Positions 1,435 through 56,779 of a stretch of 64,000 nt of DNA are shown here, in pieces. The notes under the pieces are model-generated. The model did no database searches and was not told where the DNA came from. It worked only from the letters and a program-made list of their open reading frames with translations. Source of the DNA: a phage. The position numbers were made by a program, and so were the translations under genes. The first letter of the stretch is position 1; the number at the start of each line of letters is the position of its first letter. The stretch lies in assembly GCA_020241125.1 (NCBI GenBank), contig GCA_020241125.1_4708.1. One strand, written 5' to 3'.

Positions 1435-1466
1435 CCCTCTCCCAACCCGTAAGGGAAGGGAGAGGG
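1435..1466 (-). terminator. Conserved GC-rich palindromic hairpin (family member 1)
   Basis: CCCTCTCCC-aaCCCgtaaGGGaa-GGGAGAGGG with CATAGAA/ATATG flanks, between two minus-strand genes. Confidence 0.6.
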
Positions 1467-1488
1467 GATATGTCAGTTTATTAACTGA

Positions 1489-2811
1489 TTACTGCTGTGC
1501 TGCGTCAGCCGGTTTCTCAGCCGCCTGGCCGCCGTACTCTTTCAGCATTTTAGCAACGCCATCCAGGACAGCGTTACCTGCCTGAACACCGTATTTCATC
1601 AGACCGGTCTGCGGGTTCACGTAGCAGGAACGTGCGTCTTTCAGTGCAGACAGTACAGCTTGAACACGCTGTTTTTCCTGAGCGGAAACTTCGCCTTTCT
1701 TAGACAGATCGGCTTCCATATCGTCACCGAATTTAACAGCGTCTTTGAAGCCCTGGGATTTCTTACCGATGTTGCCTTTCAGCGCCAGCAGTTTGTCGGC
1801 CAGTGCTTCAACACCGCTAACCGCAGCAGCCAGCTGATTCAGGGACAGGACGGTAGCTTCAACTTCTTTTGCTTCGCCAGAGCGTTCCCAGGTTACTTTA
1901 CCATCATTGGCTTTGAAACCCCAACCTGCCGGGCCAGCAACGTCAGCAATCGCCGGAGCGTTCAGTTTATCAGCGTACTCGGTGTGAGATTTAGCAACAA
2001 CGGTACCAACGAATTTATCAGCACGATCGTCAGCAGCCTTCATTGCTTTCTCGAAGGTGTCAGCGATTTTGGTCGCGCCGGTAACCAGATCATCACCACC
2101 GATGTAACCAGAAACGCCGCTACCCAGTTTAACTTTGGTATTTTTAGCAGCGCCTTTACGCTTGGCGATCATTTCTTTCAGTTTAGCAGCACGTGCTTTC
2201 AGTTTGGTCGCGCCGTCGAAGATGCGATCCATGAACTTCACGAAGGTTTCCCAGGAAGTCTTCAGGAAGTTCTTGATGGTTGCCCACAGTTTCTGCCACC
2301 ATTTTTGTTCTTCCAGGAAGATCATGTTGGTTGCATCGTAGCGGGAAGCGGAACCACCGAAGCTTTCGAAGGAAGGCATGGTTTCCGGCAGTTTGAAACC
2401 GATAGTACCACACAGACGTTTCAGATTACGCATGTGTTCTTGCGCGGTCTGTGCAGACATACCACCGTCTTTCAGGTAGCTTTCGGTTGCAACAACGGTT
2501 TCCGTCAGTTCATCCATGGCTTCGTCCATGGCTTCTGCGGTTTCGTCGTCTTTTGCAATTTCGATAACAACAGCATCAACCTGCTCGATATCACCACGAA
2601 CTTCGATAGCCAGTTCGGTTTCAGCTGCGGTATCTTCAGCGATTTCAGCACGTTCGGTCAGTTCAGCCACAACGGTTTCATCCGCTGGTGCAGCATCAGC
2701 TGCCGGTTCTGCTTCAACGGTTGCCGCTGCATCCGGGTCGATCTCAGCAGCCAGTTGAACCAGCTGTGCGTTAGATGGATTTGCGACAAGACGATCAAAA
2801 ATAGAAGGCAT
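1489..2811 (-). CDS. Hypothetical acidic/coiled-coil protein (scaffold-like or internal virion protein)
   Basis: 440-aa ORF; AAGGA Shine-Dalgarno about 10 nt upstream of ATG at 2811; strongly acidic Ala/Glu-rich N-terminus; WQKLWATIKNF helix resembles motif in neighbouring large proteins. Confidence 0.55.
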   Translation of the reverse strand: MPSIFDRLVANPSNAQLVQLAAEIDPDAAATVEAEPAADAAPADETVVAELTERAEIAEDTAAETELAIEVRGDIEQVDAVVIEIAKDDETAEAMDEAMDELTETVVATESYLKDGGMSAQTAQEHMRNLKRLCGTIGFKLPETMPSFESFGGSASRYDATNMIFLEEQKWWQKLWATIKNFLKTSWETFVKFMDRIFDGATKLKARAAKLKEMIAKRKGAAKNTKVKLGSGVSGYIGGDDLVTGATKIADTFEKAMKAADDRADKFVGTVVAKSHTEYADKLNAPAIADVAGPAGWGFKANDGKVTWERSGEAKEVEATVLSLNQLAAAVSGVEALADKLLALKGNIGKKSQGFKDAVKFGDDMEADLSKKGEVSAQEKQRVQAVLSALKDARSCYVNPQTGLMKYGVQAGNAVLDGVAKMLKEYGGQAAEKPADAAQQ

Positions 2812-2854
2812 AATTTGTTTCCTTTACAATAAATTGCACATTAGCTAATGCGGC

Positions 2855-2879
2855 TTAAGTGAACCGTCAGCTCACTTAA
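2855..2879 (-). terminator. Hairpin at end of gene 2876..3406
   Basis: TTAAGTGA-accgtcagc-TCACTTAA, 8-bp stem overlapping the stop codon; no clear U-tract. Confidence 0.3.
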
Positions 2880-3406
2880 AAGCCCTTAAAACCCGGTGCC
2901 ATAGGTTGCCCAAACACCGCATTCAAAGTACATATGATGTCCTGGATGCCATTGTCCCAATGGAGCCAAGTACGCACCATCTCTTCGTCTGACAACGTGA
3001 TATAACTCATAAGTTTACCGCTGCTTTCCAGGCGTTGGTGTGAACTTAACGACTGACGATCTGACCAGTTATCAATCAATTGACCAGCAATCTGAACGTT
3101 CGTGTCTCGTCTACCCGTGTGAATGAACCGTAGCGTATCACGGATAAACTCCAGACTGGTGAAGTTCAGATTTGGGTTATGGCTGTTCATTTCCACCCAA
3201 TCGGTGATGGGGTACATCAAACGATAAAGGGTAGAAAGAACCTGGCGTTCATATTTCCAGTCATCGAGAGGAGTACCGTCGACCAGACGCTGATACAAAC
3301 TAACAACGTCACGATCGTAGTTCTCCTGGCGTTTTACACCGTTAACCGGAAATCCGAAGAACCCGGTACCGTATAACGTTAAAGGGACGTCACGAAGTGC
3401 ATTCAT
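2876..3406 (-). CDS. Hypothetical protein
   Basis: 176-aa ORF; 4-nt overlap with upstream gene (3403..4305), consistent with translational coupling. Confidence 0.5.
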   Translation of the reverse strand: MNALRDVPLTLYGTGFFGFPVNGVKRQENYDRDVVSLYQRLVDGTPLDDWKYERQVLSTLYRLMYPITDWVEMNSHNPNLNFTSLEFIRDTLRFIHTGRRDTNVQIAGQLIDNWSDRQSLSSHQRLESSGKLMSYITLSDEEMVRTWLHWDNGIQDIICTLNAVFGQPMAPGFKGF

Positions 3407-4305
3407 ACAGCCGCCTCTTCTTTTCGTTTAATATCATAACGAAGTTTCTTCAGTCGCTCTTCGTGATATTCGATCTGCTGCTGGATTTTTGGATCGTTGC
3501 CCGCATTCTGCTGTTTTTGCTTCAGTGACAAAATCCAATACTCCAACGCTTGGGCTTCTTCTTTGGCTGCTTGTAACGACGCTTCTTCACGTTCGCTGCG
3601 CCAGATGCGATAACGGTAAATAAGCGTGTTGGTCATTTGAGTGTCGGACCATGAGCCCATACGCATCGGGTCAGTATTACCCGCGTTGTACAATCCATTA
3701 CCAACACCGTCTTCATCAGAAACCACAACATCCGGGATTTTATCCAACCCAGCAAGGATCTGTTGTTTCTGTCCACACAGCACCTCGGTGGCGATGGCGA
3801 AACCGTACATGTTGGCGGTCAGGTAAGCAATCTCGTTTTTGGTGAAGAACTCACCAAGTGCTTTATCACCACCTGGCATGCTTTCGCAGATGACCGTCGC
3901 ACGAAGCAGCGTACGAGCGTAGCTAACGTAGAAGCCCAGGGACTCAACAAGACGTACCAGAGCGGCTTCTTTGAAACTCAGACCGTCAGCAGCAACATCG
4001 ATTTCCAGGTTTTTGTTAACACGTTTAACAATTTCTGGAATCAGATCAACAGCATTACGTAGCGCTAAGTGAACGTTTTCTACCCAGCTTCCAGAGCGAA
4101 CGCGGGTTAAACGCTGGTGCAGATCCTTATCAGCAAGTTTCCATAAGGCGCTTTCTCCCTTTTGGAGAAGCGAAGCGGATGTCTCGTAGTAAGGAATCGC
4201 GGTGTTGTTGATTTCGTCACGGATTGATTCAAGTGCGTCAGCAACACCGGTGCGTTTAAAAAGCGGCTTCAAACCGCGAATGAATTCTTTAAAATCGATT
4301 GCCAT
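3403..4305 (-). CDS. Hypothetical protein
   Basis: 300-aa ORF in same-strand operon; no recognisable motif. Confidence 0.5.
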   Translation of the reverse strand: MAIDFKEFIRGLKPLFKRTGVADALESIRDEINNTAIPYYETSASLLQKGESALWKLADKDLHQRLTRVRSGSWVENVHLALRNAVDLIPEIVKRVNKNLEIDVAADGLSFKEAALVRLVESLGFYVSYARTLLRATVICESMPGGDKALGEFFTKNEIAYLTANMYGFAIATEVLCGQKQQILAGLDKIPDVVVSDEDGVGNGLYNAGNTDPMRMGSWSDTQMTNTLIYRYRIWRSEREEASLQAAKEEAQALEYWILSLKQKQQNAGNDPKIQQQIEYHEERLKKLRYDIKRKEEAAV

Positions 4306-4344
4306 GAGTGAGCACCTATGCTATTTCGAAACAGGTTGCGTATA

Positions 4345-5451
4345 TTAACGAATCTGTGGGACGTTTCCGGTACGGAGCGCCTGGAGGATCGTCAGGAGAT
4401 CGGAACCCGAGGTTGACGAACTGTTGGATTTTTCCAGCTGCTTGAAGCTTACGGTGGTCCCTTGATCCAAGCTGTGGAAATAGAAGGTCACCATCTCTTC
4501 AGCTTCGTCGATGATGATCAACTGCATTGCGAGGGCTTCAGCCATGACTTTCTGACGTGTGGTATAATCAGATAAACGACGTCCGATCTTACGCTCGATG
4601 GCTTCCTGGTTAGCCTTAGAGATGATATAGGTGGAGGCGATGGCTCCAGAAGAAGGGATCTTTGTGCTCGCTGCAGCTTTTGCGGCATTGATGCGCGCAG
4701 CATTAACAGCCTTACGGATACCCTCTTTATCCATGCGTGAGATTCGTTTGTGTTCGCGAACCAGATCGCTAAGCAGGATCATATCGCTCCAGAAAGACAG
4801 CTCACCGGCCATCATGCGATGCCAACGTGCTCGCCAGGTGTTCTGTGGGCCGCCAATCGCTAAAATCGACGCAAGCACTTCCGCTGGAGAGCTTGCAATA
4901 CGCATGCTGATGTTCAACGGCATTTTCATCGTTGCCTGACCATCGGTCAGCGTCACGGTTAAGAACTTGCCGGTGACCGCGTTTGCATCTTTGTTCAGCA
5001 ATTCGATCGCCGCGTCGCTGGCTCCAACATCGAGGCTATTTTTTTGTTTCCCCTGTAGGTTGAATCCTTTGTCATCAAGGAAAACAAGGCTTTTGCTATC
5101 CGCACTTTCCAGCGCTAATTTAACGGCCTTATCCATCAGGTTAGCGTTACGGTTTGGGTTCACACGACCCAGCGTTTTATCGACACTGATGTTACCCACC
5201 TGCATGATGGTATTCAACGCCAGTAAATAGAACCCGGTATACATGTTTTCAGCGGTGCGCATGCAGTTGCCTAACGCATTGCGTGCGTCGCTATAATACA
5301 ACTCACGTTCAAAGATCAACGGCGCGATAACGCGTGAAGGTTGTGAGAGTTCAACCAGCGAACCTGGCTGGATAAGTTTATTAACTTCGTAGACTTTAGC
5401 GATACCTGACGCAACAACATTAACAGCGTCGGCAATTTCTGATGCTACCAT
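4345..5451 (-). CDS. Hypothetical protein (possibly structural)
   Basis: 368-aa ORF; head of minus-strand block diverging from plus-strand gene at 5453. Confidence 0.5.
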   Translation of the reverse strand: MVASEIADAVNVVASGIAKVYEVNKLIQPGSLVELSQPSRVIAPLIFERELYYSDARNALGNCMRTAENMYTGFYLLALNTIMQVGNISVDKTLGRVNPNRNANLMDKAVKLALESADSKSLVFLDDKGFNLQGKQKNSLDVGASDAAIELLNKDANAVTGKFLTVTLTDGQATMKMPLNISMRIASSPAEVLASILAIGGPQNTWRARWHRMMAGELSFWSDMILLSDLVREHKRISRMDKEGIRKAVNAARINAAKAAASTKIPSSGAIASTYIISKANQEAIERKIGRRLSDYTTRQKVMAEALAMQLIIIDEAEEMVTFYFHSLDQGTTVSFKQLEKSNSSSTSGSDLLTILQALRTGNVPQIR

Positions 5452-5452
5452 A

Positions 5453-6691
5453 TTGAAATCCTTATTTACAAATAAAGGAAAGAAAATGTCTAATTACTAC
5501 GACCAAGCTATTCAAACCATTCAGGAGAATAATGCGTCGTTAACACCCGAAGCTGTGGAGGCAGCGGGCAATGCGGTGTTATTCACTGATTCGGATTGGG
5601 CAATAGCGCGGAAGAATATTCGTACCAGTGTCGGTCAAGGGACATACGAGGACAGTATCGCCAGACGGTATCGGAATGTGTCGCCTATTCCTGGTAACAG
5701 CCCGATCCCGATTAACCGCGATCATGCCGGTATTACCTTCTTCACACGACCTAATTTACATCTTACCGACGCGAACTTAAAACGAGATCGACGTTTGTGG
5801 TCGTTACGTACGGATAACCCTAACAGTATTCAGGCTGTTGTCCGTGACTACTTGGACCCTGTGGGTGCCAGAAAGCGGAACCATCGAGGACGTGCCATCG
5901 TCGATGAGCGCAATCCATTCATAAGTATACTGACGGACAACCTGACGGATATCAGCGGTTTCAATGACATGGAAATGCAGGTCTATCAGGGTAAACCGGG
6001 ATTACGCCAAGAAACCGTTGTGATGGCTGACGGTTCAGTGGATATGTTCCAGCCTTATAACCTGAACGCGACGTTCAAGAACATCATGGGTAACCCCATC
6101 ATGTTCCTTCATTATATTTGGTTGATTTACATCGCAGGCGTGCATAATGGTGAACTGACGCCAAGCCCTCAGGCCATCATCGACAATGAAATGGATTACT
6201 GGACAAGATGCTATCGTATCATCCTGGATCCGACTGGGATGTATGTTCGTTATATCTTCGCACCGACCGCGATGTTTCCTGTCGGGTTACCGATTGGTAA
6301 TATGGCTAACTACAGCATCGATAAACCCTTCACGCAAGATAACGAACGTATCACTATTCCATATCAGGCGGTTGGTAACAACGCGTTCGATGAGATTCTG
6401 AAGGATGAATTCAATCGACTTGTCCTGATGTTCTATTACGGTGAGAACGATACCCGTACGTTCCTTGAAGATGAGGAGCTGGTACCTATCTCACCCTACG
6501 AGCGTCGAATCATGTCGTATCGTGTCGATATGTATCCATTTATTCATCCGTTGACCTCAGAGCTTCTTTGGTTCGTACCCGCTGATGATTACAACGAATT
6601 CTATCTGGATCTTGAGCCGTCGGCGTTACCACCGGATACGTTCAGTCGCGATCTTGTCCGTACCACCATTCCGCAAAATTACGAGGGATAA
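5453..6691 (+). CDS. Hypothetical protein
   Basis: 412-aa ORF; likely true start at ATG 5486 (MSNYYDQ) preceded by AAAGGAAAG; followed 4 nt later by next gene. Confidence 0.55.
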   Translation: MKSLFTNKGKKMSNYYDQAIQTIQENNASLTPEAVEAAGNAVLFTDSDWAIARKNIRTSVGQGTYEDSIARRYRNVSPIPGNSPIPINRDHAGITFFTRPNLHLTDANLKRDRRLWSLRTDNPNSIQAVVRDYLDPVGARKRNHRGRAIVDERNPFISILTDNLTDISGFNDMEMQVYQGKPGLRQETVVMADGSVDMFQPYNLNATFKNIMGNPIMFLHYIWLIYIAGVHNGELTPSPQAIIDNEMDYWTRCYRIILDPTGMYVRYIFAPTAMFPVGLPIGNMANYSIDKPFTQDNERITIPYQAVGNNAFDEILKDEFNRLVLMFYYGENDTRTFLEDEELVPISPYERRIMSYRVDMYPFIHPLTSELLWFVPADDYNEFYLDLEPSALPPDTFSRDLVRTTIPQNYEG

Positions 6692-9688: not shown

Positions 9689-9709
9689 AACAAAATAGCA
9701 TGAGCATAA

Positions 9710-9741
9710 CCCTCCTCCAACCCAACAGGGAAGGAGGAGGG
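9710..9741. terminator. Conserved palindromic hairpin (member 2) at convergent gene junction
   Basis: CCCTCCTCC-aaCCCaacaGGGaa-GGAGGAGGG flanked by GCATAA/ATATGC. Confidence 0.6.
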
Positions 9742-9750
9742 AATATGCTG

Positions 9751-12543
9751 TTATCTTACGTTAGTGTTATTCTGTTGTTCACTGAACCAACCATACACCT
9801 TGAGATCGGTACCGTATCTCAGTGCGATATACGCATTCAGCGCAGCACAGAACAAAGACGCGAATGCCCATATCAGCGAAGGATCAACATCTTCCGTTAC
9901 CACTGGGAGAGTATTATCCGGTTCCCATGATGGTGAACTGTCCATGAACGTTGCGTACCATCCCCGCCGTTGTTCTTCAGTGGTAAAGTCGCTATGAGGT
10001 TCCAACGCTTCTTTTGCCAGACGTCGATATTCGAACATATGCGTTGCTAAAGCCGATGAGTTACCAGATTCGCCTTCATAGTTCGGATCCACCGCATAAC
10101 AGAGTTCTGTTGAATCTAACAAAGCAACCGCCTGTGTGATGCTGTCGGCAGTACCTGCACCATAGAGCTCGATAGACCGCGAAAGCTTCTCACAGAACGC
10201 ATTTAACGCGGAAGGATTGGACACCTGAAGGTCAAGGCCTAATGTCCACGGATAGTTACTGAATACACCCGTAAACCGCGGCATAACACCCAACAGATGT
10301 TGTCCGATTACAGCACGGTTATAAACAGCCCTGTTATAGACTTGAAACGCAGCCTCCAGGGCTTGGTTATAATGACGACGAAGTTCGTCACGCGAGTTGC
10401 GGAATCTGTTTGCCGCAAGACTCGTGGCTGCGACGCTACAAACATCGTAATTGGTGGACGAGAGCACAACTTCGTTAAGATCGAACGCTTCCTGTTTCAA
10501 TGTTCCGCTAACAGCCGCTGCTTCGCTGTTCGCTTTATCGACAACTGTACTCAAAGCGTTAATATAACGTTTAGCTCGGACTTCCAACCATTGTGCGATA
10601 CCGAGAATATCCACCGCAGCTTTAGCAAGATCGCGTGCGTTCACGATTTCGTTCTTCAAAGCCCCTAAACCTTTATTTTCAGGCGATGAGGCTTGTTGAC
10701 GAATCATGCTGTTTAACATGGTAAGCAGATTATCCAGCTCATGTCCGCTGACCTTGTTGCGCGCATCGGTAATCGGCCCTTGCAGGAATTTACGGCAACC
10801 ATCGTTGTATCGAATCAGTTTATCCACATCGATAGATTCGTTCGTGGATTCCTTGAACTGATCCTTCAATTCTTCACGGTAGTCATGGATTTCACTTGCG
10901 AGATTATCGATAGTGATACCGTTATGTCCAAGAAGAACTTTATTGAAGTTACCTTTCTCGAATGCCAGAGCAAGACCTTCACGAATCTTAGCGAGTTTAT
11001 CCTGATCGAGTTCACGACCGTTCGATAGCTCTTTCACTTCCGAGCTGATTAATGCCGAAACGTTACCCAGATTGTCGGTAACCCCTTTGAACGCTCCCGA
11101 CCAGATCGTTCCTGCTTCAGCATATTTCGCAATGGTCTGAATACCGACGGTGTGCAGCGACGCTAAACGTTTCTTCGTGCCTTCGGTAAGCAGAGCGTCT
11201 TTAGCTCGCGTAAGCTGACTGTTATTAGCTTCCGCCTGCTGAATCGCTGCTTTCGCACTTCCATTACGCCAGCTCTTAACTAACCAATCAACCAAACGTT
11301 TTAGGATATTGACGGTGTATTCCATTGTCCGCCGTAACGTTTCCCACGCGCTTTCTGCGGTATAGATGCCGTACCCTTCCATCTTCGTTGGGTCAAAGAA
11401 ACCTTCCTGCACGAGATCGATACGTGTGTAGCCATCAGCAGCTTCTACTTCCGCCTGGGTTTTATCCCAGAAGTCGTCGCTCTTTGCAGCAATCGCTGTA
11501 TCTTTAACGTCCAGGATGATCTGACCAACCGTTTGTGCAAACAGCAAGGCCGCACGTACCGATTGTGCGAACATCCGCTGATATTTGATTCGAACGCATT
11601 GCATCTGGGTTAGCAGATTCAGTTGTGCGATCCCATCCAAGGTGCTATCCTGAGCAAGCCCTTCGGCTTTAGCGATAACCTGTTTTACACGTTCAGCGAC
11701 ATCACCGTACTGCTGGCAAACATCCCGCAGAATACGTGTTGCGAAGACCCCGGTACCGATATAGTTCAATAGGTCTTTTAACGACCATTCGGTCGGACAA
11801 TCGGTCGGCGCAATAGGGAGTAAGCAACCATCACCGTCCATGAATCTCTCTAATGCGCTAATATCCTGATTTTCTACGCTCATGGGGATATCGACATCAG
11901 CCGCTTGCAGATCCAGCATCTGTTGTAGGATGTTGGTATCGGCTTGTACAAGCGTCGCAAGCGCTTGGCTGTGTGCGATTATTGGTAACGCAGGCGACCA
12001 TACTGCAGCAAGCTTGTCGGCGTGACGTTGAATGGCATACCCCATATCCTCGATCACATCGGGATGCTCGATAACCCCCTGAAGCGTTTGATGTAGCTCA
12101 CCGAGTTGCTGAGACAGATCGACCATCATGGTGTTGAAGGTTTCGCCATCCTCTTTGTGGTTGTCCAGACGCTCGAGTTCATGTCGAAGCAATATGACGA
12201 GCTGTCCGTTGCCTTCTTGCTTCAGCTTGCTTTCCATTAACGTAATGGCTTTATCGACGATCTGGCACGCTTCACGAAAACCGGTTGTGGAAGGAAGCTC
12301 TGTCCATAACGCCAGCGGTTTACCGTCAAGGGCTTCCGGCATCGATAACGAAAGCATAGACAGTTGTTGACGTGATACTTGCTGTTCACAGTGTAATGTT
12401 TCTTTTAACGCCAGGAGATCGTCAAGAAACGCGCCGTTAAGGGTGGTCGTACGCGGTGTTGAATTAATACCGTCAGTTAACGATTCAAGCACCAGGAGAC
12501 CGTTATCAGCTGAAGAGAGTCCCGCGGCAAGATATTTGTTCAT
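9751..12543 (-). CDS. Hypothetical large helical protein; candidate internal/ejection protein (LVxEGF family)
   Basis: 930-aa ORF; contains LVQEGFFDP and a downstream LVDWLVKSW helix resembling motifs in the 70..1410 and 12603..15398 proteins; predicted highly alpha-helical. Confidence 0.55.
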   Translation of the reverse strand: MNKYLAAGLSSADNGLLVLESLTDGINSTPRTTTLNGAFLDDLLALKETLHCEQQVSRQQLSMLSLSMPEALDGKPLALWTELPSTTGFREACQIVDKAITLMESKLKQEGNGQLVILLRHELERLDNHKEDGETFNTMMVDLSQQLGELHQTLQGVIEHPDVIEDMGYAIQRHADKLAAVWSPALPIIAHSQALATLVQADTNILQQMLDLQAADVDIPMSVENQDISALERFMDGDGCLLPIAPTDCPTEWSLKDLLNYIGTGVFATRILRDVCQQYGDVAERVKQVIAKAEGLAQDSTLDGIAQLNLLTQMQCVRIKYQRMFAQSVRAALLFAQTVGQIILDVKDTAIAAKSDDFWDKTQAEVEAADGYTRIDLVQEGFFDPTKMEGYGIYTAESAWETLRRTMEYTVNILKRLVDWLVKSWRNGSAKAAIQQAEANNSQLTRAKDALLTEGTKKRLASLHTVGIQTIAKYAEAGTIWSGAFKGVTDNLGNVSALISSEVKELSNGRELDQDKLAKIREGLALAFEKGNFNKVLLGHNGITIDNLASEIHDYREELKDQFKESTNESIDVDKLIRYNDGCRKFLQGPITDARNKVSGHELDNLLTMLNSMIRQQASSPENKGLGALKNEIVNARDLAKAAVDILGIAQWLEVRAKRYINALSTVVDKANSEAAAVSGTLKQEAFDLNEVVLSSTNYDVCSVAATSLAANRFRNSRDELRRHYNQALEAAFQVYNRAVYNRAVIGQHLLGVMPRFTGVFSNYPWTLGLDLQVSNPSALNAFCEKLSRSIELYGAGTADSITQAVALLDSTELCYAVDPNYEGESGNSSALATHMFEYRRLAKEALEPHSDFTTEEQRRGWYATFMDSSPSWEPDNTLPVVTEDVDPSLIWAFASLFCAALNAYIALRYGTDLKVYGWFSEQQNNTNVR

Positions 12544-12557: not shown

Positions 12558-12590
12558 GCCTAGGGGAAGGTTTTCAGCCTTCCCCTAGGG
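12558..12590 (-). terminator. Palindromic hairpin (member 3)
   Basis: CCTAGGGGAAGG-ttttcag-CCTTCCCCTAGG perfect 12-bp stem with CATAAA flank. Confidence 0.55.
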
Positions 12591-19151: not shown

Positions 19152-19199
19152 TTCAAGTAGGTTGATCCTCGCTTAACAAAAAAGAAAACACATGCGAAG

Positions 19200-19231
19200 C
19201 CCCTCCCCCTGGCGGAAGCCGGAGGGAGGGG
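19200..19231. terminator. Palindromic hairpin (member 4) at convergent junction after the PolB fragment
   Basis: CCCCTCCCCCTGGC...GCCGGAGGGAGGGG imperfect inverted repeat. Confidence 0.5.
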
Positions 19232-19237
19232 TGAGGT

Positions 19238-19723
19238 TTATGCGCGTTCGTTACCAACCGTTACTTTGTAGTCAGCGTCGGTTAAGAAAATAGACAGGAA
19301 TCCATGTTCTTTGCAAATCTTACTAAGGATGTCAGCAATGATTTCGTTGATCATCGGCTTGTTTGCAAGGGCATAGATGTACCCGGGTGTAAAAGAAAGT
19401 GCGTGATTGATCATAGGCTCATGAGAAGCCAAGATAAGGATCACATGATGCTTCCCATCGTCGGTAACGACCGCTTGCGTAGACACGAAGAAATCAGTGA
19501 AGCAGCAGCGATCACAGGCTTTAGGTATATACAAGTCACCCAGAGCTTCGTCACGTGCTTTTACGTGTGTTTCAGGGGTGATGCTGCTAAGTTGATCTTC
19601 AGCGAGATCCAAGACATCCTCAATCGTTTTAAGAATAGCGTTGCGGAAATCCTCACGGTAGAATGGGATGATATCACGATCGTTCATGTAATCGCCGGAT
19701 TCGATAGTAAAGTTGATGTTCAT
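19238..19723 (-). CDS. Hypothetical small protein
   Basis: 161-aa ORF, first gene of a long same-strand array of small genes; AGGAG upstream of start. Confidence 0.5.
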   Translation of the reverse strand: MNINFTIESGDYMNDRDIIPFYREDFRNAILKTIEDVLDLAEDQLSSITPETHVKARDEALGDLYIPKACDRCCFTDFFVSTQAVVTDDGKHHVILILASHEPMINHALSFTPGYIYALANKPMINEIIADILSKICKEHGFLSIFLTDADYKVTVGNERA

Positions 19724-19793: not shown

Positions 19794-20258
19794 TTAGATA
19801 TCGTCATCCGTGGTGCCGTAGGACATATGCTGAATTAATTTTCTCGGCTCGATGAAAATACGACATGTGATAAACACATCGGGATCGTATTGCTCCACGC
19901 AACGTCCGAAGGTTTGTTTTGCGGCTTGGCGCATCGATGTTATTTCCTGATCGTTCATCGCATTATCGAATTCGATGTTGATCGCGATTTTATCGGGAAA
20001 TAAATAGATAAAGTAATCGCCGCTGATACCACCATCATCAAAGTGACGTTCATTGTAGCACTGGACGAGCTTACCTTCACGTTCTTTCTGATACCACCCA
20101 AGGATACTATTAAGACCTCTGTCCACGCATTCGAATGCTTGAGTAATAACATCCTCAACGACGGATGCAGGCGTGGGACCATTGAATAGACGATCTAAGC
20201 GCTTTTTCATCGATTTGGTTTTCTCGTTCATGATTTCTTTTCCTGTTATAATCGGCAT
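19794..20258 (-). CDS. Hypothetical small protein
   Basis: 154-aa ORF in small-gene array. Confidence 0.5.
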   Translation of the reverse strand: MPIITGKEIMNEKTKSMKKRLDRLFNGPTPASVVEDVITQAFECVDRGLNSILGWYQKEREGKLVQCYNERHFDDGGISGDYFIYLFPDKIAINIEFDNAMNDQEITSMRQAAKQTFGRCVEQYDPDVFITCRIFIEPRKLIQHMSYGTTDDDI

Positions 20259-20262
20259 ACAA

Positions 20263-20293
20263 CCCTTCCCCGGCCTGATGGCTAGGGAAGGGG
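20263..20293 (-). terminator. Conserved palindromic hairpin (member 5)
   Basis: GCATAcaa-CCCTTCCC-N14-GGGAAGGG-gcTATGC. Confidence 0.55.
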
Positions 20294-20306
20294 CTATGCT
20301 ACGTTG

Positions 20307-24120: not shown

Positions 24121-24146
24121 TAAAAAAAGGTGGGGCGAACCCCACC
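24121..24146 (-). terminator. Intrinsic terminator
   Basis: GGTGGGG-cgaa-CCCCACC hairpin with plus-strand A7 run (U-tract on the minus transcript) immediately downstream of gene 24172..24597. Confidence 0.75.
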
Positions 24147-24690: not shown

Positions 24691-24725
24691 AAACTGCGTT
24701 AACACGAAATAAAAAACAGCATAGA

Positions 24726-24768
24726 ACCCTCCTCCCACATCCTTCAAGAGGACGGTGGGAAGAGGGAG
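24726..24768 (-). terminator. Conserved palindromic hairpin (member 6)
   Basis: CATAGAA-CCCTCCTCCCAC...GTGGGAAGAGGG, one mismatch. Confidence 0.5.
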
Positions 24769-25173: not shown

Positions 25174-25226
25174 GGAGTGCTTTTCCTATTTTTATTTTCT
25201 GCACAGGATAAATTCAACGGCATAAA

Positions 25227-25260
25227 GCCCTTCCCTGCCCTTATATGGGGCGGGAAGAGT
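25227..25260 (-). terminator. Degenerate palindromic hairpin (member 7)
   Basis: CATAAAG-CCCTTCCCTGCCC-ttatat-GGGGCGGGAAGAG-TTTATG; imperfect stem. Confidence 0.4.
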
Positions 25261-25387
25261 TTATGACCGCAATGAGAATCTCTCACGACAAGCTCACGAC
25301 GATTATCGCATCACCCCGCGAGTGAGGGAGATCAGGATCACCTCCTACGTCGTAACGACAGTAATCCCGTTAACGTCGCCTTAGGCA

Positions 25388-31391: not shown

Positions 31392-31407
31392 CGCAACGGT
31401 AACATAA

Positions 31408-31439
31408 CCCTCTCCCTTCCCTGCTGGGTTGGGAGAGGG
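31408..31439. terminator. Conserved palindromic hairpin (member 8) at convergent junction
   Basis: CATAA-CCCTCTCCC-ttCCCtgctGGGtt-GGGAGAGGG-cTTATG. Confidence 0.6.
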
Positions 31440-31456
31440 CTTATGCTGTTATGCTA

Positions 31457-35819: not shown

Positions 35820-36572
35820 TTAAATTGAAGTTAGATATTGTTTACCTCCAACAAACGACGTTAACCAATTACCTGAAACAAGTTGCGATGCCCAGCCAGG
35901 CACTGCCCTACCGTTCTGGCTCATCACGTTACCTGCCCATCCCGGAAAACCAGGTCGGAAAATATATACTTGAATATGTGTTAAAGCGTTATCATTACCA
36001 CCGCCAACAGCAACGTTACGACTCCCAGATGACGGGAAATATTCTTTTAAGAACAGAGGATCGGTTGCTAATAAAGATGCGGGCCAAGGGTTCGCGGATG
36101 CATCAACATCGAATTCGGTCCATCGCCATTTACGTCCCGTGTCGAACCATGTCGATGTACCACCACCCCTCACGGCAAGATTGCGCGCATCACGGACATT
36201 ATAAATTGATTCGATGTTACGCCATCCACCTTTTGCAGCGTTTGCTGCATAGCAAACCGCATTACCACCATTCTTCTTCTCGTAAACGGTTCGTTTGATA
36301 TGAACACGGTCGATGAACGCTTCACCGTATTTGTTGACGAGCGTTTGTGCGATATCACGAAGATCGTGCATGTGAAAAGCGATGTCTTCGTTATGGAACC
36401 ATGTTGTCTGGTTCCAGACGGTACCGTTTGGTTCGGCACACATCGATCGGATATTGTTGCGTTGATTAATCGCGATAAAACCCATTGTATACCTCGTTCC
36501 TATTCTCAAAAAGGAAATTTCATACGATGACGCCATAGCAGCTCCTCCTTCCCTTACGGGTTGGAGGAGCAT
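35820..36572 (-). CDS. Hypothetical Trp/Asn/Gly-rich protein, paralog 2 (conserved C-terminal module)
   Basis: 250 aa; shares C-terminal module and DVRDIAxxVxN-Y motif with 35067..35708 product. Confidence 0.55.
   Translation of the reverse strand: MLLQPVREGGAAMASSYEISFLRIGTRYTMGFIAINQRNNIRSMCAEPNGTVWNQTTWFHNEDIAFHMHDLRDIAQTLVNKYGEAFIDRVHIKRTVYEKKNGGNAVCYAANAAKGGWRNIESIYNVRDARNLAVRGGGTSTWFDTGRKWRWTEFDVDASANPWPASLLATDPLFLKEYFPSSGSRNVAVGGGNDNALTHIQVYIFRPGFPGWAGNVMSQNGRAVPGWASQLVSGNWLTSFVGGKQYLTSI
36541..36570 (-). terminator. Conserved palindromic hairpin (member 9)
   Basis: CATAGCA-GCTCCTCC-ttCCCttacGGGtt-GGAGGAGC-ATAC. Confidence 0.55.
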
Positions 36573-36578
36573 ACTTAA

Positions 36579-41225: not shown

Positions 41226-41338
41226 AAGCGCACCCTCCTCCAACAATCGAATTAATATGCAAAAACGCCTCGAAACAGGAGTGCGATTCGAGGCTAACGT
41301 AAACAGTCTTAACGACCGCATAAAATTCCGCGCATATT

Positions 41339-41371
41339 GCCCCTCTATCCCGACAAAGCGAGATAGAGGGG
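41339..41371 (-). terminator. Palindromic hairpin (member 10)
   Basis: CATATTG-CCCCTCTATC-ccgacaaagcga-GATAGAGGGG. Confidence 0.5.
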
Positions 41372-41383
41372 AGGATAATACGA

Positions 41384-46772: not shown

Positions 46773-46785
46773 TATTTACTCCACC

Positions 46786-47616: not shown

Positions 47617-47665
47617 GCTGACCTCATAGATGATCGTTGATAGGAAAGAAACCTAATTCATACCA

Positions 47666-47733
47666 TGGGAGCCTCAAAAAAAAAAAACGAAAAAATAGGA
47701 AAACGGTGTTCATCCTTTTTAGGGATGAACACC
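47666..47733 (-). terminator. Intrinsic (rho-independent) terminator
   Basis: Perfect 11-bp stem GGTGTTCATCC/GGATGAACACC (47705..47733) followed on the minus-strand transcript by a long U-tract (plus-strand A-run 47666..47700); lies just downstream of gene 47755..48330. Confidence 0.8.
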
Positions 47734-47754
47734 GCGTACCGTTATATCGAACGA

Positions 47755-48330: not shown

Positions 48331-49076
48331 TCGTCAATATCTCCTTCCACAAACAGAGTCAATTTGATTTCAGGATCATAGAACATGGTAATCACATCAT
48401 CTTGCTCTACTGAACGCTGTGCTGTCCATATTAACTGTTCATCCCGAATATCAAATTTATGTCGTTCGTCACTCACCACAGCTTCCGCATCAACGTAATG
48501 GTAAACATCACCGAGAGGATTCTCAATCCAGCCGCGTACCATCAAACGTTCTTTTTGTTTACGTGTAAAGAAGCGATAGGGATCTTCGCACGTGCGCCAT
48601 ACGTCCCCCTTCTCGCTAACCAGTTCATCATAAACTTTAGAGAGTTCGTCAGGCACCGGAATCAAAATGTTATCTTGATAGTTCGACCAGAAACGACGTA
48701 CGTCTTGGATCAACTCATCGTCTGGGAGTTTAGTCGCTATGTTACTATAATCGATTTCAACAGTATCGATATCAAGACGGGTAAACGGAAGAGCGTCTAG
48801 GTTTCCCACCATGACCTCGATCTGATCATGATGGACACGAATCCATCCATCGAACCATCTGTACCCATCAGCTTGATATAACGTTGTGTGATAAGTGACG
48901 ACGTTAATATCCTCGAACGATTCTAATAAGGCTTTAGCGGCTAAAAGCGGTGAAAAGTTCTTCGATTGTCCTGGTTTACGTATTTCTTCTTTGATAAACA
49001 ATTTACCGAGCAGTGGGTGTTCGATAACAAAACCACAGGAAAGCATGATGCTTCCTTGATAACGTGCTTCTTGCAT
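48327..49076 (-). CDS. Hypothetical protein
   Basis: 249-aa ORF; 4-nt overlap with downstream gene. Confidence 0.5.
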   Translation of the reverse strand: MQEARYQGSIMLSCGFVIEHPLLGKLFIKEEIRKPGQSKNFSPLLAAKALLESFEDINVVTYHTTLYQADGYRWFDGWIRVHHDQIEVMVGNLDALPFTRLDIDTVEIDYSNIATKLPDDELIQDVRRFWSNYQDNILIPVPDELSKVYDELVSEKGDVWRTCEDPYRFFTRKQKERLMVRGWIENPLGDVYHYVDAEAVVSDERHKFDIRDEQLIWTAQRSVEQDDVITMFYDPEIKLTLFVEGDIDE

Positions 49077-49194
49077 TTTTTATTCCTTAAACAAAAGATT
49101 GTCTTTTACGCGACATGATTACAAGTACACAGGTTACTGAATTTCTGTAAAAGTTAATTTTCGTAAACTAAAAGAAAATGTATCCGTGTTTCCT

Positions 49195-49231
49195 GGTTCT
49201 TCCCCTCCACAGCCTCAGGAAGAGAAGAACC
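49195..49231 (-). terminator. Hairpin downstream of gene 49252..49500
   Basis: GGTTCTTC...GAAGAACC outer stem with alternative inner pairings (TTCTTCC/GGAAGAG). Confidence 0.4.
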
Positions 49232-49251
49232 GTTTGCTAAGTTGTTATGTA

Positions 49252-49500
49252 TTAAAATGCATTGATTGGACTGTTCAACGCTTTATCACGGATTTGAATC
49301 GCCGCCAGCATTGCTTTCTGGTACGAATCGTAGGCATCGACAGAAACAGTCGTATCAACCAATTCCTTTAATGCGGATTCAGCCGCTTTTACACGGACGC
49401 GGAACTTGGTGATTGCGTTATCTTTGTTACGATAAACCGTGATGTGGTGCAGCGGTTGAACTTTGGTTTTAACGGATTTAGTTGCTTTGATCGTTTTCAT
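49252..49500 (-). CDS. Hypothetical small basic protein
   Basis: 82-aa ORF bounded by hairpins on both sides. Confidence 0.45.
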   Translation of the reverse strand: MKTIKATKSVKTKVQPLHHITVYRNKDNAITKFRVRVKAAESALKELVDTTVSVDAYDSYQKAMLAAIQIRDKALNSPINAF

Positions 49501-49552
49501 GATGATTTCCTTCTTTATTAGGATGATTACATTTAGTCAGTTTAACAGCATA

Positions 49553-49580
49553 AGCCCTTCCCACCTTACGCAGGAAGGGC
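49553..49580 (-). terminator. Conserved palindromic hairpin (member 11)
   Basis: CATAA-GCCCTTCC-caccttacgca-GGAAGGGC-ATAC. Confidence 0.55.
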
Positions 49581-49593
49581 ATACGGATTTGTT

Positions 49594-50091
49594 TTACGTG
49601 TGTCGTCGTTTACCAAAGAAAATGTGGCTATCTACCACGGTGATATTGGTAGCATGTTTTCTGAAATGTTTAGGGCGAAGATGTTTCGCGTTAAAGAATA
49701 CGGCTCCTCGTGTTGGGTCGGCTTTATGGTAAGCCGCAATGTCAGTATAACGTAATGTTGCGACCTCTCGTGCTATTGCTCTTGCTCGCTCAAAAGCAGC
49801 ATGATCGCGTATGACAATACGCCTTTGTTTTGTCCAGGGGAATTGACCTCTTTGCAGTACGACGTCTCTGACGTTCGTAGGGAATCGGTAGTCCATAGAT
49901 CGATTATGTATTAAAAACGCCACGGAGTATTGCCCTTTTACAGATTCGCCTCTGGCTTCCATATACACAGCGCATGCGACGATCTCTTTCCGGCAATCGA
50001 TTCTAGGTCCTGCGTTCACCGATGCTTGACTGAACGGTGTGATAAGCAACATAACAAGCCCTAAAATCAACGTGTGTAAAATACCTTGCAT
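49594..50091 (-). CDS. Secreted SleB-like cell-wall hydrolase (candidate endolysin)
   Basis: N-terminal signal peptide (MQGILHTLILGLVMLLITPFSQASVNA); CAVYMEARGES matches the hallmark YxEARGE motif of SleB/CwlJ-type hydrolases. Confidence 0.6.
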   Translation of the reverse strand: MQGILHTLILGLVMLLITPFSQASVNAGPRIDCRKEIVACAVYMEARGESVKGQYSVAFLIHNRSMDYRFPTNVRDVVLQRGQFPWTKQRRIVIRDHAAFERARAIAREVATLRYTDIAAYHKADPTRGAVFFNAKHLRPKHFRKHATNITVVDSHIFFGKRRHT

Positions 50092-52805: not shown

Positions 52806-52895
52806 CTTGACATCCTCTTATATTGGATTGATTGCTAATAATTCAAGGTGAAGCTGATTACTGCATTGCTTCACCTAGGTAATATAGCCGTGAAA
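52806..52895 (-). promoter_or_regulatory. Conserved promoter/5' leader element, copy B
   Basis: Proximal CAATCCAATATAAGAGGATGTCAAG-ATG and distal TTTCACGGCTATATTACCTAGGTG about 67 nt upstream; near-identical to copy A. Confidence 0.5.
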
Positions 52896-52910
52896 ATTAA
52901 TGCATTAATT
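52895..52910. promoter_or_regulatory. Perfect 16-bp palindrome AATTAATGCATTAATT (candidate operator)
   Basis: Exact self-complementary 16-mer between the stop of gene 52914..53939 and promoter element copy B. Confidence 0.4.
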
Positions 52911-52913
52911 TAT

Positions 52914-54743: not shown

Positions 54744-55342
54744 TACTTATGTTCCAGTGTTGGTCCAAACAACCAGAATGTCAGGCGCTGATAGACCTGT
54801 TCGCTGACCGCGGCTTCTGTTTGCTCTTCTAGTGATTTCCCTTTTTTATGCTGTATTTCTGGCGGGATGTCGCCCGTGTAAACATACCCTGTTGAGAAGT
54901 CCCACGCCAGCCGTTTACCGAATGTGGGTAAGAACACCTCTTCGAATCGGAACGCTTTCGAATTCCAATGAAGCAGCTGATCGGATTCAACACGTAATGC
55001 TTTATTACGTTTGCTTGGCATGTTTCCGAAGTACTGAACGATGGCTGACTTCATAACCCGATCAGCGAAGTCTTTGGCTTCGGTCTCATCGAGGGGAGGC
55101 AGGCGATGCGATAGATTCAGCTTGCGTTGTTCAACATCAATCTTACGCATCGCTTTAATCAAATCACTAGGGACGATTTTACCCTTATGTCCTTCCTGTC
55201 GGTGTATGAAACACCCCTGGAATAACACGCAAAGTTCTTGAGGTGCGGTACTTTCCATTCGTCCGTAAGCAACGATCACCGAACGGCGACGGTCGATAAC
55301 TTCGCGGATAAACCGCGGCTCAGTAATACTCACCACTGTCAT
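54743..55342 (-). CDS. Hypothetical protein
   Basis: 199-aa ORF. Confidence 0.45.
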   Translation of the reverse strand: MTVVSITEPRFIREVIDRRRSVIVAYGRMESTAPQELCVLFQGCFIHRQEGHKGKIVPSDLIKAMRKIDVEQRKLNLSHRLPPLDETEAKDFADRVMKSAIVQYFGNMPSKRNKALRVESDQLLHWNSKAFRFEEVFLPTFGKRLAWDFSTGYVYTGDIPPEIQHKKGKSLEEQTEAAVSEQVYQRLTFWLFGPTLEHK

Positions 55343-55386
55343 TTAAAGCCCTCTTTATCTTTTTCCATTTCTCTTTACATAACCAC

Positions 55387-56112
55387 TTAAGACGTTGCCA
55401 TCTTATCTTCCAGAGACTTCTTCGGTAAACCATGGATAACTCCTTCCGGGGTTAAGAACACACAGTCTGGATTCTGCGTTCGCGAACGGTCGTCTGGAGT
55501 GTTCAACGAGAACAACAACGCAGAAATACCTTTCGTCCGGTTTAACGTCGCTACGATCACGTCAAGCTGCCGTAGTGCATCCGATACCGTTCGATGAGGA
55601 ACGATACGTGACTGTTTGAAGCTGGCTAACCGCCAAGTCTCGAACAAACAACGCAGTTTAAACACGTCAGACGGAACAGCAGTAGATCCCTGTTCGATAA
55701 CCTCAACCCGATCAGCTTCAGGATAACCTACGGCAACCGCACTAAAGTGTCTTACCCCATTATGAAAATCATCGATAGATGCTTCAGCGTATTTACATAC
55801 CGTGCCAGAAACGACCATCACTTTTGCTAAACCGCGATAATTGATCGTCAACGGAATACGAAATACACGTAAAGCATGTTCCGGATTTAATGAGACGTCG
55901 TTAACCTTCGTTGCGGTCAGCTTACCACGCTCGTAACGTGCGGTGAACGGCAGCCCGTCATAAACGGGATTGATTACAACGCCCCCTGGGGAGGCGTTAG
56001 CGTTAAGATGGACATTAAGCCAATCGGATACTTCCTGTCTACTAGTTACGATTAACATAAAACGGTCCTCCATTTCTTTTCCTTTATTCATGACGAGTAT
56101 CTTCCAAATCAT
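55387..56112 (-). CDS. LigA-like nucleotidyltransferase-domain protein lacking the catalytic lysine (candidate pseudo-ligase)
   Basis: NPVYDGLPFTARYERGKLTATKV and RVFRIPLTI align with [23 protein letters not shown] and the downstream region of the full-length LigA in this window, but the KxDG lysine is replaced by Val. Confidence 0.4.
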   Translation of the reverse strand: MIWKILVMNKGKEMEDRFMLIVTSRQEVSDWLNVHLNANASPGGVVINPVYDGLPFTARYERGKLTATKVNDVSLNPEHALRVFRIPLTINYRGLAKVMVVSGTVCKYAEASIDDFHNGVRHFSAVAVGYPEADRVEVIEQGSTAVPSDVFKLRCLFETWRLASFKQSRIVPHRTVSDALRQLDVIVATLNRTKGISALLFSLNTPDDRSRTQNPDCVFLTPEGVIHGLPKKSLEDKMATS

Positions 56113-56734
56113 CCCTTTGTTTTGTAAATTCTGATTGCTTGCGATAAACCGTCCACGAATCGTATATGCCGTGAAAGTTCAAATGACGTGCATTTAAGTT
56201 AACGGTGAATTCTTCCACAGAGGAGAAATCCGAACGAAGCATCGAATGGAAGGCGTCATCTCCGGTGCAGCCCCCGTATCCCTCACCCTGATAGATCAAA
56301 AGCTGATGTGGTTGAATACGCGCGGCAACCAGCGCAGCTTGTGGTTCGCAGTAAGGCGGCCACGACAGTAAAATAACATCGTACTGTGAAAGATCGATGT
56401 TCGTGTAGTCGACCTGCTGAATGTCCTCGATAAACGGGTGGGGATGTAATTCCGTATCGTAGGCGGTAACGTCCTCAACACCAAGTTTACGTAGTACATA
56501 AGTCAGGTAACCTGTCCCACAACCCAAATCAGCGACACGTCGCCCGTAACAGATATTCGCTAACTGGAGCGCGGTATCCATGGTTAACAACGACCATCCA
56601 ATGTGCTGGGTACATTCTTCACGCACACTCCATTGTTGATGGTACGTCATGGGTTCTATGATACTAGCAAGCTGCTGGTACGGCAATGGCATTCTGGTTT
56701 CGCCTTGCGTGAGTAATGCAATAACGTTGTTCAT
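56084..56734 (-). CDS. Class I SAM-dependent methyltransferase
   Basis: Motif I VADLGCGTGYL, acidic residue after beta-2 (AYDTE), and YDVILLSWPPY. Confidence 0.6.
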   Translation of the reverse strand: MNNVIALLTQGETRMPLPYQQLASIIEPMTYHQQWSVREECTQHIGWSLLTMDTALQLANICYGRRVADLGCGTGYLTYVLRKLGVEDVTAYDTELHPHPFIEDIQQVDYTNIDLSQYDVILLSWPPYCEPQAALVAARIQPHQLLIYQGEGYGGCTGDDAFHSMLRSDFSSVEEFTVNLNARHLNFHGIYDSWTVYRKQSEFTKQRDDLEDTRHE

Positions 56735-56760
56735 TTTGTTTCCTTTTTTATCAGCATAAA

Positions 56761-56779
56761 CCCTCCCGTGCCGGGAGGG
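56761..56779 (-). terminator. Short palindromic hairpin (member 12)
   Basis: CATAAA-CCCTCCCG-tgc-CGGGAGGG. Confidence 0.5.

Follow-up and report, generated by a model that had tools for sequence, protein, structure and literature searches.

Intergenic hairpins with a polar TTATG flank as probable transcription terminators in a Goslar-like jumbo phage

Introduction

The stretch of phage DNA considered here comprises 64,000 nucleotides (contig GCA_020241125.1_4708.1 of NCBI GenBank assembly GCA_020241125.1; hereafter the window, meaning the whole stretch) and carries, mostly between genes on the minus strand, a family of GC-rich hairpins which are flanked by the tetranucleotide TATG. A first-pass annotation had listed twelve such palindromes and proposed that they serve a sequence-specific function rather than generic termination. 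The comparison with related and more distant jumbo phages presented below points, with good probability, to terminators which are read by the phage's own RNA polymerases.

The phage and its RNA polymerases

Bases 30000-50000 of the window match Escherichia phage vB_EcoM_Goslar with 94% identity across 81% of their length, and this query finds no nucleotide-level match to any other phage record. By this measure, the phage is a close relative of Goslar, a 237 kb nucleus-forming jumbo phage of the Chimalliviridae which infects Escherichia coli. The majority of the window's genes are encoded by the minus strand.

An open reading frame (ORF) at 26040-27341 on the minus strand encodes an RNA polymerase beta-like subunit, which is 99.8% identical to its Goslar counterpart and about 30% identical to the beta-like subunits of phiKZ, 201phi2-1, SPN3US-like and many other jumbo phages; 311 jumbo-phage records contain a homologue. 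Further subunits of phiKZ-like multisubunit RNA polymerases are named in the Goslar annotation, and the phage belongs to those which encode the split, multisubunit polymerases of the phiKZ type. Furthermore, sigma-70-like promoter matches in bases 20001-60000 of the window lie below the level of shuffled sequence (21 vs 33.8 +/- 4.7; 31 vs 39.2 +/- 6.8), which fits a phage that does not depend on the host polymerase. No description of terminator or promoter motifs was found in the searchable literature for Goslar, which is the main E. coli model of nucleus-forming jumbo phages. A few of the sites discussed here, including the orthologue of the element at 31408, have already been labelled 'putative transcriptional terminator' by the Goslar annotators.

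A non-random family of intergenic hairpins

When the window was searched exhaustively for perfect stems of 7 bp or more, ten of the twelve listed sites proved to carry GC-rich hairpins; the stems at 24726 and 25227 are imperfect and were picked up by a folding-based, mismatch-tolerant scan. This second scan finds twelve strong GC hairpins between genes, each with TATG at most 6 nt away on one or both sides, at 1435, 9710, 19200, 20263, 24727, 25228, 31408, 36541, 41340, 49554, 56760 and 62883 (Table 1). All twelve sites of the first-pass annotation thus carry a GC hairpin and eleven of them belong to the family, whereas the hairpin at 12559 falls outside it, with different arms and no CATA/TATG flank, and is probably a terminator of another type; the element at 62883-62916 had been overlooked.

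On the two strands together, the window has 12 hairpins with 8 or more bp, 6 or more GC pairs and a TATG within the following 5 nt, against a mean of 0.13 and a maximum of 2 in 100 dinucleotide-preserving shuffles; without regard to the flank, hairpins of this class number 30 against 4.3. The GC palindromes are therefore a real and highly non-random family, as had been proposed, and the suspicion that they are chance palindromes, which the first-pass annotation had itself named as a possible refutation, is not borne out. The RNA of the listed sites folds with -17 to -34 kcal/mol (z -2.7 to -7.4 vs shuffles). Every copy in the window is intergenic, its stem starting 4-48 nt past a stop codon (128 nt in one case), and all three convergent strand switches of the window (9710, 19200 and 31408) are occupied, in agreement with the placement at gene ends and convergent switches described earlier.

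The lack of a U-tract, and with it the distinction from two canonical terminators, is likewise upheld: a scan for hairpins with at least five T in the 8 nt after the stem returns no family member and ranks 24146-24129 and 47735-47703, both on the minus strand, first. Rfam at its gathering threshold gives no match in the 64 kb window, and a tRNA scan of the window returned nothing. The architecture which had been ascribed to all copies holds in part. TATG is present at twelve sites, but both of the supposed CATAA/TTATG flanks are found only at 1435, 9710, 20263, 25228 and 31408, and neither of them at 12559. The nested inner hairpin of the CCC-N4-GGG type with AA/TT bulges is confined to 1435, 9710, 31408 and 36541, i.e., to 4 of 13 hairpins, the others having different interiors.

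Table 1. Hairpin elements and separate terminators in the window. Strands are given in brackets, with (.) for convergent junctions; z refers to the folding energy against shuffled sequence and E to covariance model R1 (see text).
Coordinates (strand)	Feature	Hairpin	Flank or tail	Folding and model match
1428..1472 (-)	putative terminator element between two minus-strand genes	stem CCCTCTCCC/GGGAGAGGG, 1435-1466, nested CCC-N4-GGG	sense-side TATG 1431-1428; mirror TATG 1469-1472	-27.5 kcal/mol, z -4.9; E 6e-23 (seed copy)
9704..9751 (.)	two-sided element at convergent junction; plus-strand gene end 9688, minus-strand gene end 9751	stem 9710-9741, nested type	TATGCTG plus at 9744; TATGCTC minus at 9708	z -6.3 and -7.2
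12559..12589 (-)	strong hairpin between two minus-strand genes, outside the family; identical in Goslar	CCTAGGGGAAGG-ttttcag-CCTTCCCCTAGG		z -3.5
19194..19245 (.)	element at convergent junction	stem CCCCTCCC/GGGAGGGG, 19200-19231	TTATGCG 6 nt downstream, plus strand only	z -3.9; E 0.07
20256..20298 (-)	element between two minus-strand genes	stem CCCTTCCC/GGGAAGGG, 20263-20292	TATGCC minus at 20259; mirror TATGCT plus at 20295	z -4.4; non-seed, E 5.5e-7 minus vs 0.036 plus
24122..24146 (-)	canonical intrinsic terminator, separate class; top T-tract scan match	GGTGGGG-ttcg-CCCCACC	TTTTTTT	
24720..24766 (-)	one-sided element	40-nt imperfect hairpin 24727-24766	TTCTATGCTG	z -5.2; E 1e-4
25221..25265 (-)	element between two minus-strand genes	hairpin 25228-25259	CTTTATGCCGT (minus)	z -5.5; E 2.9e-6
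31403..31449 (.)	two-sided element at convergent junction	stem 31408-31439, nested	CTTATGCTGT plus; TTATGTT minus	
36534..36574 (-)	one-sided element	stem GCTCCTCC/GGAGGAGC, 36541-36570, nested, sense GUAA loop	TGCTATGG	z -5.5
41333..41371 (-)	one-sided element	stem CCCCTCTATC/GATAGAGGGG, 41340-41371	CAATATGCG	z -5.1; E 0.15
47666..47735 (-)	canonical-type terminator, separate class	13-bp hairpin 47703-47735	long T-rich tail	
49545..49580 (-)	one-sided element	hairpin 49554-49580	GGGAAGGGCTTATGCTGT	z -4.7
56751..56780 (-)	one-sided element, simplest phiKZ-like form	ACCCTCCCG-gca-CGGGAGGGT	TTATGCTGA	z -2.7; E 5.5e-5
62877..62916 (-)	one-sided element, absent from the earlier list; kept in Goslar	imperfect hairpin 62883-62916	GTTATGCCG	-23.1 kcal/mol, z -5.5

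Polarity of the flank and distribution over gene junctions

The downstream flank of the window copies has the consensus TTATGCYG, in which the G after TTAT is invariant, and it lies on the side at which the transcript exits. At the nine sites between minus-strand genes, TATG is found on the exit side in 9/9 cases and on the other side in 3/9, and at the three convergent sites it occupies 5 of 6 sides (Fisher p = 0.004, convergent sides included); sites with a single flank carry it exclusively on the transcript-exit side. The hairpin and right flank at 19200 are the same in Goslar, with a single substitution 9 nt upstream of the stem.

The scan was repeated on the whole Goslar genome, which was assembled from six stretches and in which genes were taken from rough ORF calls. 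Here, 39 intergenic loci carry the element, with TATG on 45 of 52 transcript-exit sides as compared with 6 of 26 other sides (p = 5e-8), and where a co-directional locus has TATG on one side only, this is the exit side in 20 of 22 cases (p = 1e-4). At least one of the two exceptions (156156) lies directly after an annotated small plus-strand gene which the ORF caller overlooked. Two-sided flanks are found at 8 of 13 convergent but only 4 of 26 co-directional loci (p = 0.008), and TATG is present on 21 of the 26 sides of convergent loci. Counted by junction, the element occupies 13/19 convergent, 26/181 co-directional and 0/20 divergent ones.

On account of this polarity and this distribution, in the window as well as in Goslar, the full CATAA...TTATG palindrome is best described as the two-sided version of a one-sided signal, which occurs mainly where transcription arrives from both directions. 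A polar TTATG, combined with elements at most convergent and at none of the divergent junctions, is what a terminator predicts.

Stem structure, covariation and strand asymmetry

Fifteen copies of the nested type, taken from the window, Goslar and two relatives from IMG/VR (L003 and L004), comprise four arm sequences, in each of which a 5' arm made up of pyrimidines is perfectly complementary to a 3' arm made up of purines. In an alignment of 78 matches to the covariance model described below, which cover the Goslar clade and phiKZ, 98.2% of the cells are paired and 8 of the 12 pairs have changed on both sides, a result equalled in 0 of 500 shuffles; sliding and shuffling controls for pairing were all far lower. 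The stem thus conserves structure rather than sequence. One may speculate that arms made up solely of pyrimidines or of purines keep each arm from pairing with itself and thereby secure a single, fast-folding register.

Four one-sided elements (24727, 41340, 49554 and 62883) contain G-U pairs which form only in the sense RNA, making it 3-6.6 kcal/mol more stable than the antisense RNA. Two such pairs each are present at 24727 (sense -28.4 vs antisense -24.5 kcal/mol) and 49554 (-19.7 vs -13.1 kcal/mol), and the difference at 41340 is 3.1 kcal/mol.

Loop inversion and hairpin exchange between strains

The interior of the hairpins is variable. Between the window and Goslar (94% identical), the loop is inverted in 3 of about 14 orthologous hairpins, namely 31408, 49554 and the canonical terminator 47703. 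At 31408, the inner 14 nt (31417-31430) read TTCCCTGCTGGGTT in the window and AACCCAGCAGGGAA in Goslar, its exact reverse complement, and the inverted loops at 49562-49572 (in 49554) and 47714-47721 (in 47703) are exact or near-exact reverse complements. The occurrence of both orientations (aa versus tt bulges), which the first-pass annotation had recorded, is accounted for by such inversions, and since the loops flip between close relatives, their orientation is not functionally constrained. The flipped loops also indicate that, at a divergence of only about 6%, the spacer between inverted arms is frequently turned round, by cruciform-type events or template switching.

Whole hairpins are exchanged as well. 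At the sites of 31408 and 24727, L003 and L004 carry another hairpin of the same family within unchanged flanks (L003:13609, L003:20760, L004:9838 and L004:16995), which at the 24727 site is of the nested type. Many Goslar copies are identical across 32 nt, including three 32-nt hairpins which are identical to one another. These patterns suggest gene conversion or concerted evolution among the terminator copies, possibly by way of the shared flanks. Over the roughly 64 kb compared, the window and Goslar show no presence/absence polymorphism of elements.

Correspondence with the phiKZ terminator motif

In phiKZ, ONT-cappable-seq mapped 133 transcript 3' ends, 61 of which share the motif BCCYCCCCHWWDGGGRRGGBYTTATKYYGT, i.e., a hairpin followed by TTAT, and a terminator was called only where read coverage fell by at least 20% across the site (Putzeys et al., 2024; PMC10914365). 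In 201phi2-1, this motif is the principal one among terminators ('motif A', n = 59), and elongated versions of the hairpin are also found there (PMC11512511). In the 100 kb of phiKZ that were read, gene ends carry the form CATAA-GCCCTCCC-loop-GGGAGGGC-(N)TTATGYYG, two-sided at convergent genes, with examples such as CATAA-GCCCTCCC-attgc-GGGAGGGC-ATTATG and CATATC-GCCTCCC-ctag-GGGAGGC-TTTATGCTG.

A covariance model (R1) was built from 25 seed copies, all of them from the Goslar clade, which puts into practice a check suggested by the first-pass annotation. R1 recovers the non-seed members of the window at E values of 5e-7 to 5e-4 and gives nothing below E 0.1 in coding DNA. In 100 kb of phiKZ, the model finds about 30 loci at E <=1e-4, which it aligns from end to end including both flanks, placing the stems of the window and of phiKZ in register, column for column. 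Conversely, the 3' half of the phiKZ motif (GGGRRGGBYTTATKYYGT) has 12 matches in the window at up to three mismatches, against 2.27 expected; one of these is exact (49545-49562, minus strand) and two have a single mismatch, among them the tail of 25228. Two intragenic matches to the phiKZ tail, at 33801 and 43618, are regarded as chance, there being no hairpin (z +1.0 and -0.35).

Compared feature by feature, the arms are C-rich (CCYCCCC) on the 5' side and G-rich (GGGRRGG) on the 3' side, as in CCCTCTCCC, CCCTCCTCC, CCCTTCCC, CCCCTCCC and ACCCTCCCG with their exact complements, the 3' tail follows BYTTATKYYGT, and the elements lie at the 3' ends of genes with the tail downstream. The short loop of about 4 nt (HWWD) is the feature which is not shared: a 3-nt loop occurs only at 56760, and elsewhere the interiors are 11-16 nt long, four of them nested. 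The loop is a part of the motif that varies, as the elongated hairpins of 201phi2-1 also show. The elements of the window and those of phiKZ and 201phi2-1 thus have in common the CCCTCC/GGAGGG arms, the immediate (N)TTATG(Y)(Y)G(T) tail, the optional CATAA mirror, the position right after stop codons and the two-sided copies at convergent genes, and all phages in which the motif is found are chimalliviruses with two multisubunit RNA polymerases. They differ in the length of the hairpin (27-40 nt here vs about 18-22 nt there), in the subfamily with CCC-N4-GGG nested between AA/AA or UU/UU internal loops, in the base after TTAT, which is always G here and either G or T in the phiKZ motif, and in the host, which is E. 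coli.

R1 finds no match in Seoulvirus SPFM16 or in Serratia phage KpGz_1, the phage with the next-closest polymerase subunit. By eye, KpGz_1 carries CATAA-GGGAGGGC-gaaa-GCCCTCCC-AATATGYYG at 4230, 16418, 21942 and 26978, so that the flanks CATAA and (A)ATATGYYG are kept and the polarity of the arms is reversed. As R1 misses these copies, the model is specific for arm polarity, and the tail emerges as the most conserved part across lineages.

Proposed termination mechanism

The match to phiKZ in sequence and structure, the polarity of the flank, the distribution over gene junctions and the compensatory stems are direct observations, and on their strength we consider it likely that the elements are terminators for the phage's own multisubunit RNA polymerases and represent the Goslar-clade version of the phiKZ-like hairpin+TTAT terminator. 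The class itself, the hairpin+TTAT terminators of chimalliviruses, is already known; it had not been described in this clade and host. The contrast with generic termination which the first-pass annotation had drawn is not supported, in view of this match and of the 3' ends mapped at such elements in phiKZ and 201phi2-1. A role of the inner hairpin as a conserved recognition feature has to be given up as well, since this hairpin is found in a minority of copies and changes orientation between close relatives. As far as can be judged from sequence alone, the elements may be factor-dependent.

In the proposed mechanism, the nascent RNA would fold into a stable hairpin with the all-pyrimidine 5' arm CCCUCYCC and the all-purine 3' arm GGRGAGGG, the short, U/A-rich (N)UUAU with its invariant G would replace the bacterial U-tract, and the polymerase would stop at about UUAU|G. 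The signal is polar, consisting of the hairpin and then TTATGCYG along the direction of transcription, and where genes converge, a flank on both strands produces the CATAA...TTATG palindrome, which would act as a bidirectional terminator. By analogy with phiKZ, transcript 3' ends are expected to form at the window sites, with the U|G step as the presumed point of pausing or release; the Y(-1)G(+1) elemental pause of bacterial RNA polymerases offers an analogy for this step. Canonical Rho-independent terminators resemble the elements in that a GC-rich hairpin precedes a U-containing tract and in that a palindromic A-tract/U-tract arrangement serves two-way termination at convergent genes. The elements differ from them in having fewer than five U in 8 nt, a specific UUAUGCYG tail and strictly homopyrimidine/homopurine arms.

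Several points weigh against termination at these sites. Transcript-end mapping for this phage or for Goslar was not found in the searchable literature, the published Goslar RNA-seq paper reporting no end mapping, and the argument proceeds by analogy. In the long-read data for phiKZ, 3' ends formed by termination cannot be told apart completely from those left when an exonuclease trims the RNA as far as a stable hairpin. The late promoter of the phiKZ non-virion RNA polymerase likewise has TATG as its core (PMC4666361), so that at co-directional sites the flank could be conserved in part for the sake of initiation. The loci of the polarity test were preselected for at least one side with TATG, a bias which the 20/22 result for single-sided loci addresses, and the underlying ORF calls are rough. 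The pair counts come from a model-fitted alignment which includes both strands of palindromes and possibly copied paralogues, and for this reason the compensatory changes are not independent events. Finally, sense and antisense stability do not differ significantly across all co-directional elements (Wilcoxon p = 0.11), and the comparison is informative only for the four one-sided elements with G-U pairs.

A reading of the GGAGG arm, spacer and ATG as a Shine-Dalgarno sequence with start codon was rejected: at 1435 and 25228 the ATG is out of frame with the downstream ORF, at 24727 TATG lies 125 nt from the next gene, the motif is found at convergent sites too, and phiKZ allows T at the position of the G.

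Alternative functions

The overlap with the phiKZ late promoter raises the question of whether the elements also start transcription. TATG would then serve as the core promoter of the non-virion RNA polymerase, with its G as +1, and each element would stop the upstream transcript and restart transcription for the next gene, a proposal which is compatible with termination, adds a second function to it, and which we regard as doubtful. The non-virion RNA polymerase of phiKZ requires TATG with the G at +1 (Yakunina et al., 2015; PMC4666361), and a structure shows that the phiKZ beta-like subunit gp123 binds this tetranucleotide (PMC12809450). At co-directional sites of the window, TATG lies about 20-55 nt upstream of the next start codon (125 nt at 24727), its G is invariant here whereas the phiKZ motif permits G or T, and TATG-like motifs are also present in the divergent regions 17179-17399 and 28234-28323. 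However, TATG is found on 5/6 convergent sides in the window and 21/26 in Goslar, where no gene follows and initiation would yield only antisense RNA, and the combination of hairpin and TATG is absent from all 20 divergent regions of Goslar. Furthermore, the model late promoter P119L of phiKZ, when checked, has no upstream hairpin, and TATG alone is insufficient for promoter activity in phiKZ (PMC4666361). The elements resemble the phiKZ late promoter in the TATG which adjoins each hairpin, and differ from it in that the promoter needs no hairpin and that the elements are present at convergent sites as well, with no gene to follow, and absent from divergent regions. A related and tentative idea, to which we would give equally little weight, is that the TATG which the beta-lobe of the non-virion RNA polymerase reads at promoters serves a second time in the terminator, as its release or pause element, giving a polymerase-specific stop, with stop-and-restart at co-directional junctions. 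A parallel to such a signal would be the gene-end/gene-start punctuation of non-segmented negative-strand RNA viruses.

We consider it unlikely that the polymerase reads through the elements and that the hairpins set the 3' ends afterwards, by blocking an exonuclease, by RNase cleavage or by marking phage mRNAs for a factor of the phage that binds or exports RNA. In favour of this, the hairpins fold with high stability, many of them with a lower CAUA/UAUG helix which lengthens the stem, and 3'-end mapping by itself cannot tell termination from trimming. The terminator calls in phiKZ, however, required the coverage drop of at least 20% described above (PMC10914365), and an exonuclease block needs no conserved single-stranded 3' flank, whereas TTATGCYG is both conserved and polar. 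The CCCUCC/GGAGGG stems are oddly uniform in phiKZ and Goslar, which could reflect recognition by a protein; on the other side, the loop and inner hairpin vary and flip freely, and KpGz_1 keeps the flanks with reversed arm polarity, which speaks against a reader of the stem sequence. RNase III processing, one of the functions suggested in the first-pass annotation, is unlikely, given how short and interrupted the helices are (9+3 bp with internal loops, and a further 4-6 weak base pairs). The RNase III sites of phage T7 consist of a helix of about 20 bp in two stems around an internal loop and are not known to have a conserved single-stranded tail. Like the present elements, they are intergenic hairpins with internal loops at the ends of genes in a phage with its own transcription; the helices here are shorter, and the polar TTATG tail is their most conserved feature.

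A role at the level of DNA, either as binding sites of a dimeric phage protein or as a mobile REP/MITE-like palindrome spreading through intergenic DNA, is very improbable: the near-identical copies, the swapping of whole hairpins at orthologous sites of close relatives and the loop inversions, which point to cruciform formation or template switching, would fit it, but the flanks are for the most part one-sided, in line with the direction of transcription, the stems vary with compensatory changes, some stems rely on G-U pairs which would be mismatches in DNA, a comparison of the window with Goslar shows no empty sites, and coding DNA and divergent regions are free of copies. A protein recognition site, as had been suggested, is contradicted in its symmetric, DNA-binding form by the one-sided flank and the compensatory stem changes. 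With the REP/BIME palindromes of enterobacteria, the elements share the repeated, GC-rich, imperfect palindromes which occur only between genes, often past gene ends, and evolve in concert; they differ in their consensus, in a polarity which follows transcription, and in being shared with distant phages of other hosts. The Goslar annotation contains no transposase, although no search was aimed at a RAYT-type (REP-associated) one.

Implications

The occurrence of the same signal in Pseudomonas and E. coli chimalliviruses, whose polymerase subunits are about 30% identical, points to a termination mechanism which is specific to these non-canonical polymerases and has no U-tract requirement. Longer hairpins, the nested-hairpin subfamily and the invariant G are local peculiarities of the Goslar clade. 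The signal follows a simple rule, i.e., a hairpin and then a polar TTATGCYG tail, two-sided at convergent genes, and thereby refines the known class. With 12 sites in the window and about 39 in Goslar, a usable map of putative terminators becomes available, which serves the annotation of transcription units, phage engineering and the planning of termination assays in vitro. That the tail overlaps with the TATG promoter core raises a concrete question which can be tested; reuse of TATG in terminators, if true, would help to explain the specificity of a promoter of only 4 nt.

Other observations in the window

Two minus-strand upstream regions, 24598-24771 and 52806-52913, share CTAYATTACCTWGGTGA and a 34-nt block with 94% identity, GCAAYCAATCCAATATAARAGGATGTCAAG, which extends up to the start codon. 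Their TTACC core resembles the middle-promoter motif AAanTTACc of phiKZ, and the shared blocks are candidates for a promoter with a conserved 5' untranslated region.

The PolB-exonuclease-like gene at 17400-19151 (plus strand, 583 aa) is intact in the window. Its Goslar counterpart (2654-6164 of the compared stretch) is split after residue 499 by an insertion of 1.76 kb with the NUMOD1/HNH homing-endonuclease gene Goslar_00069. The insertion is probably an intron or a similar intervening sequence, the window carrying the allele without it.

About 720 nt at 35761-36481 are missing from Goslar, L003 and L004. This segment holds a diverged paralogue (74% identity over 124 nt) of the adjoining gene at 35067-35708, which encodes 213 aa. 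The tail-fibre region at 37134-43153 shows patchy similarity to Goslar (80-87% identity, with gaps) between flanks of about 95% identity and, from this pattern of identity, looks like the exchange of a host-range module.

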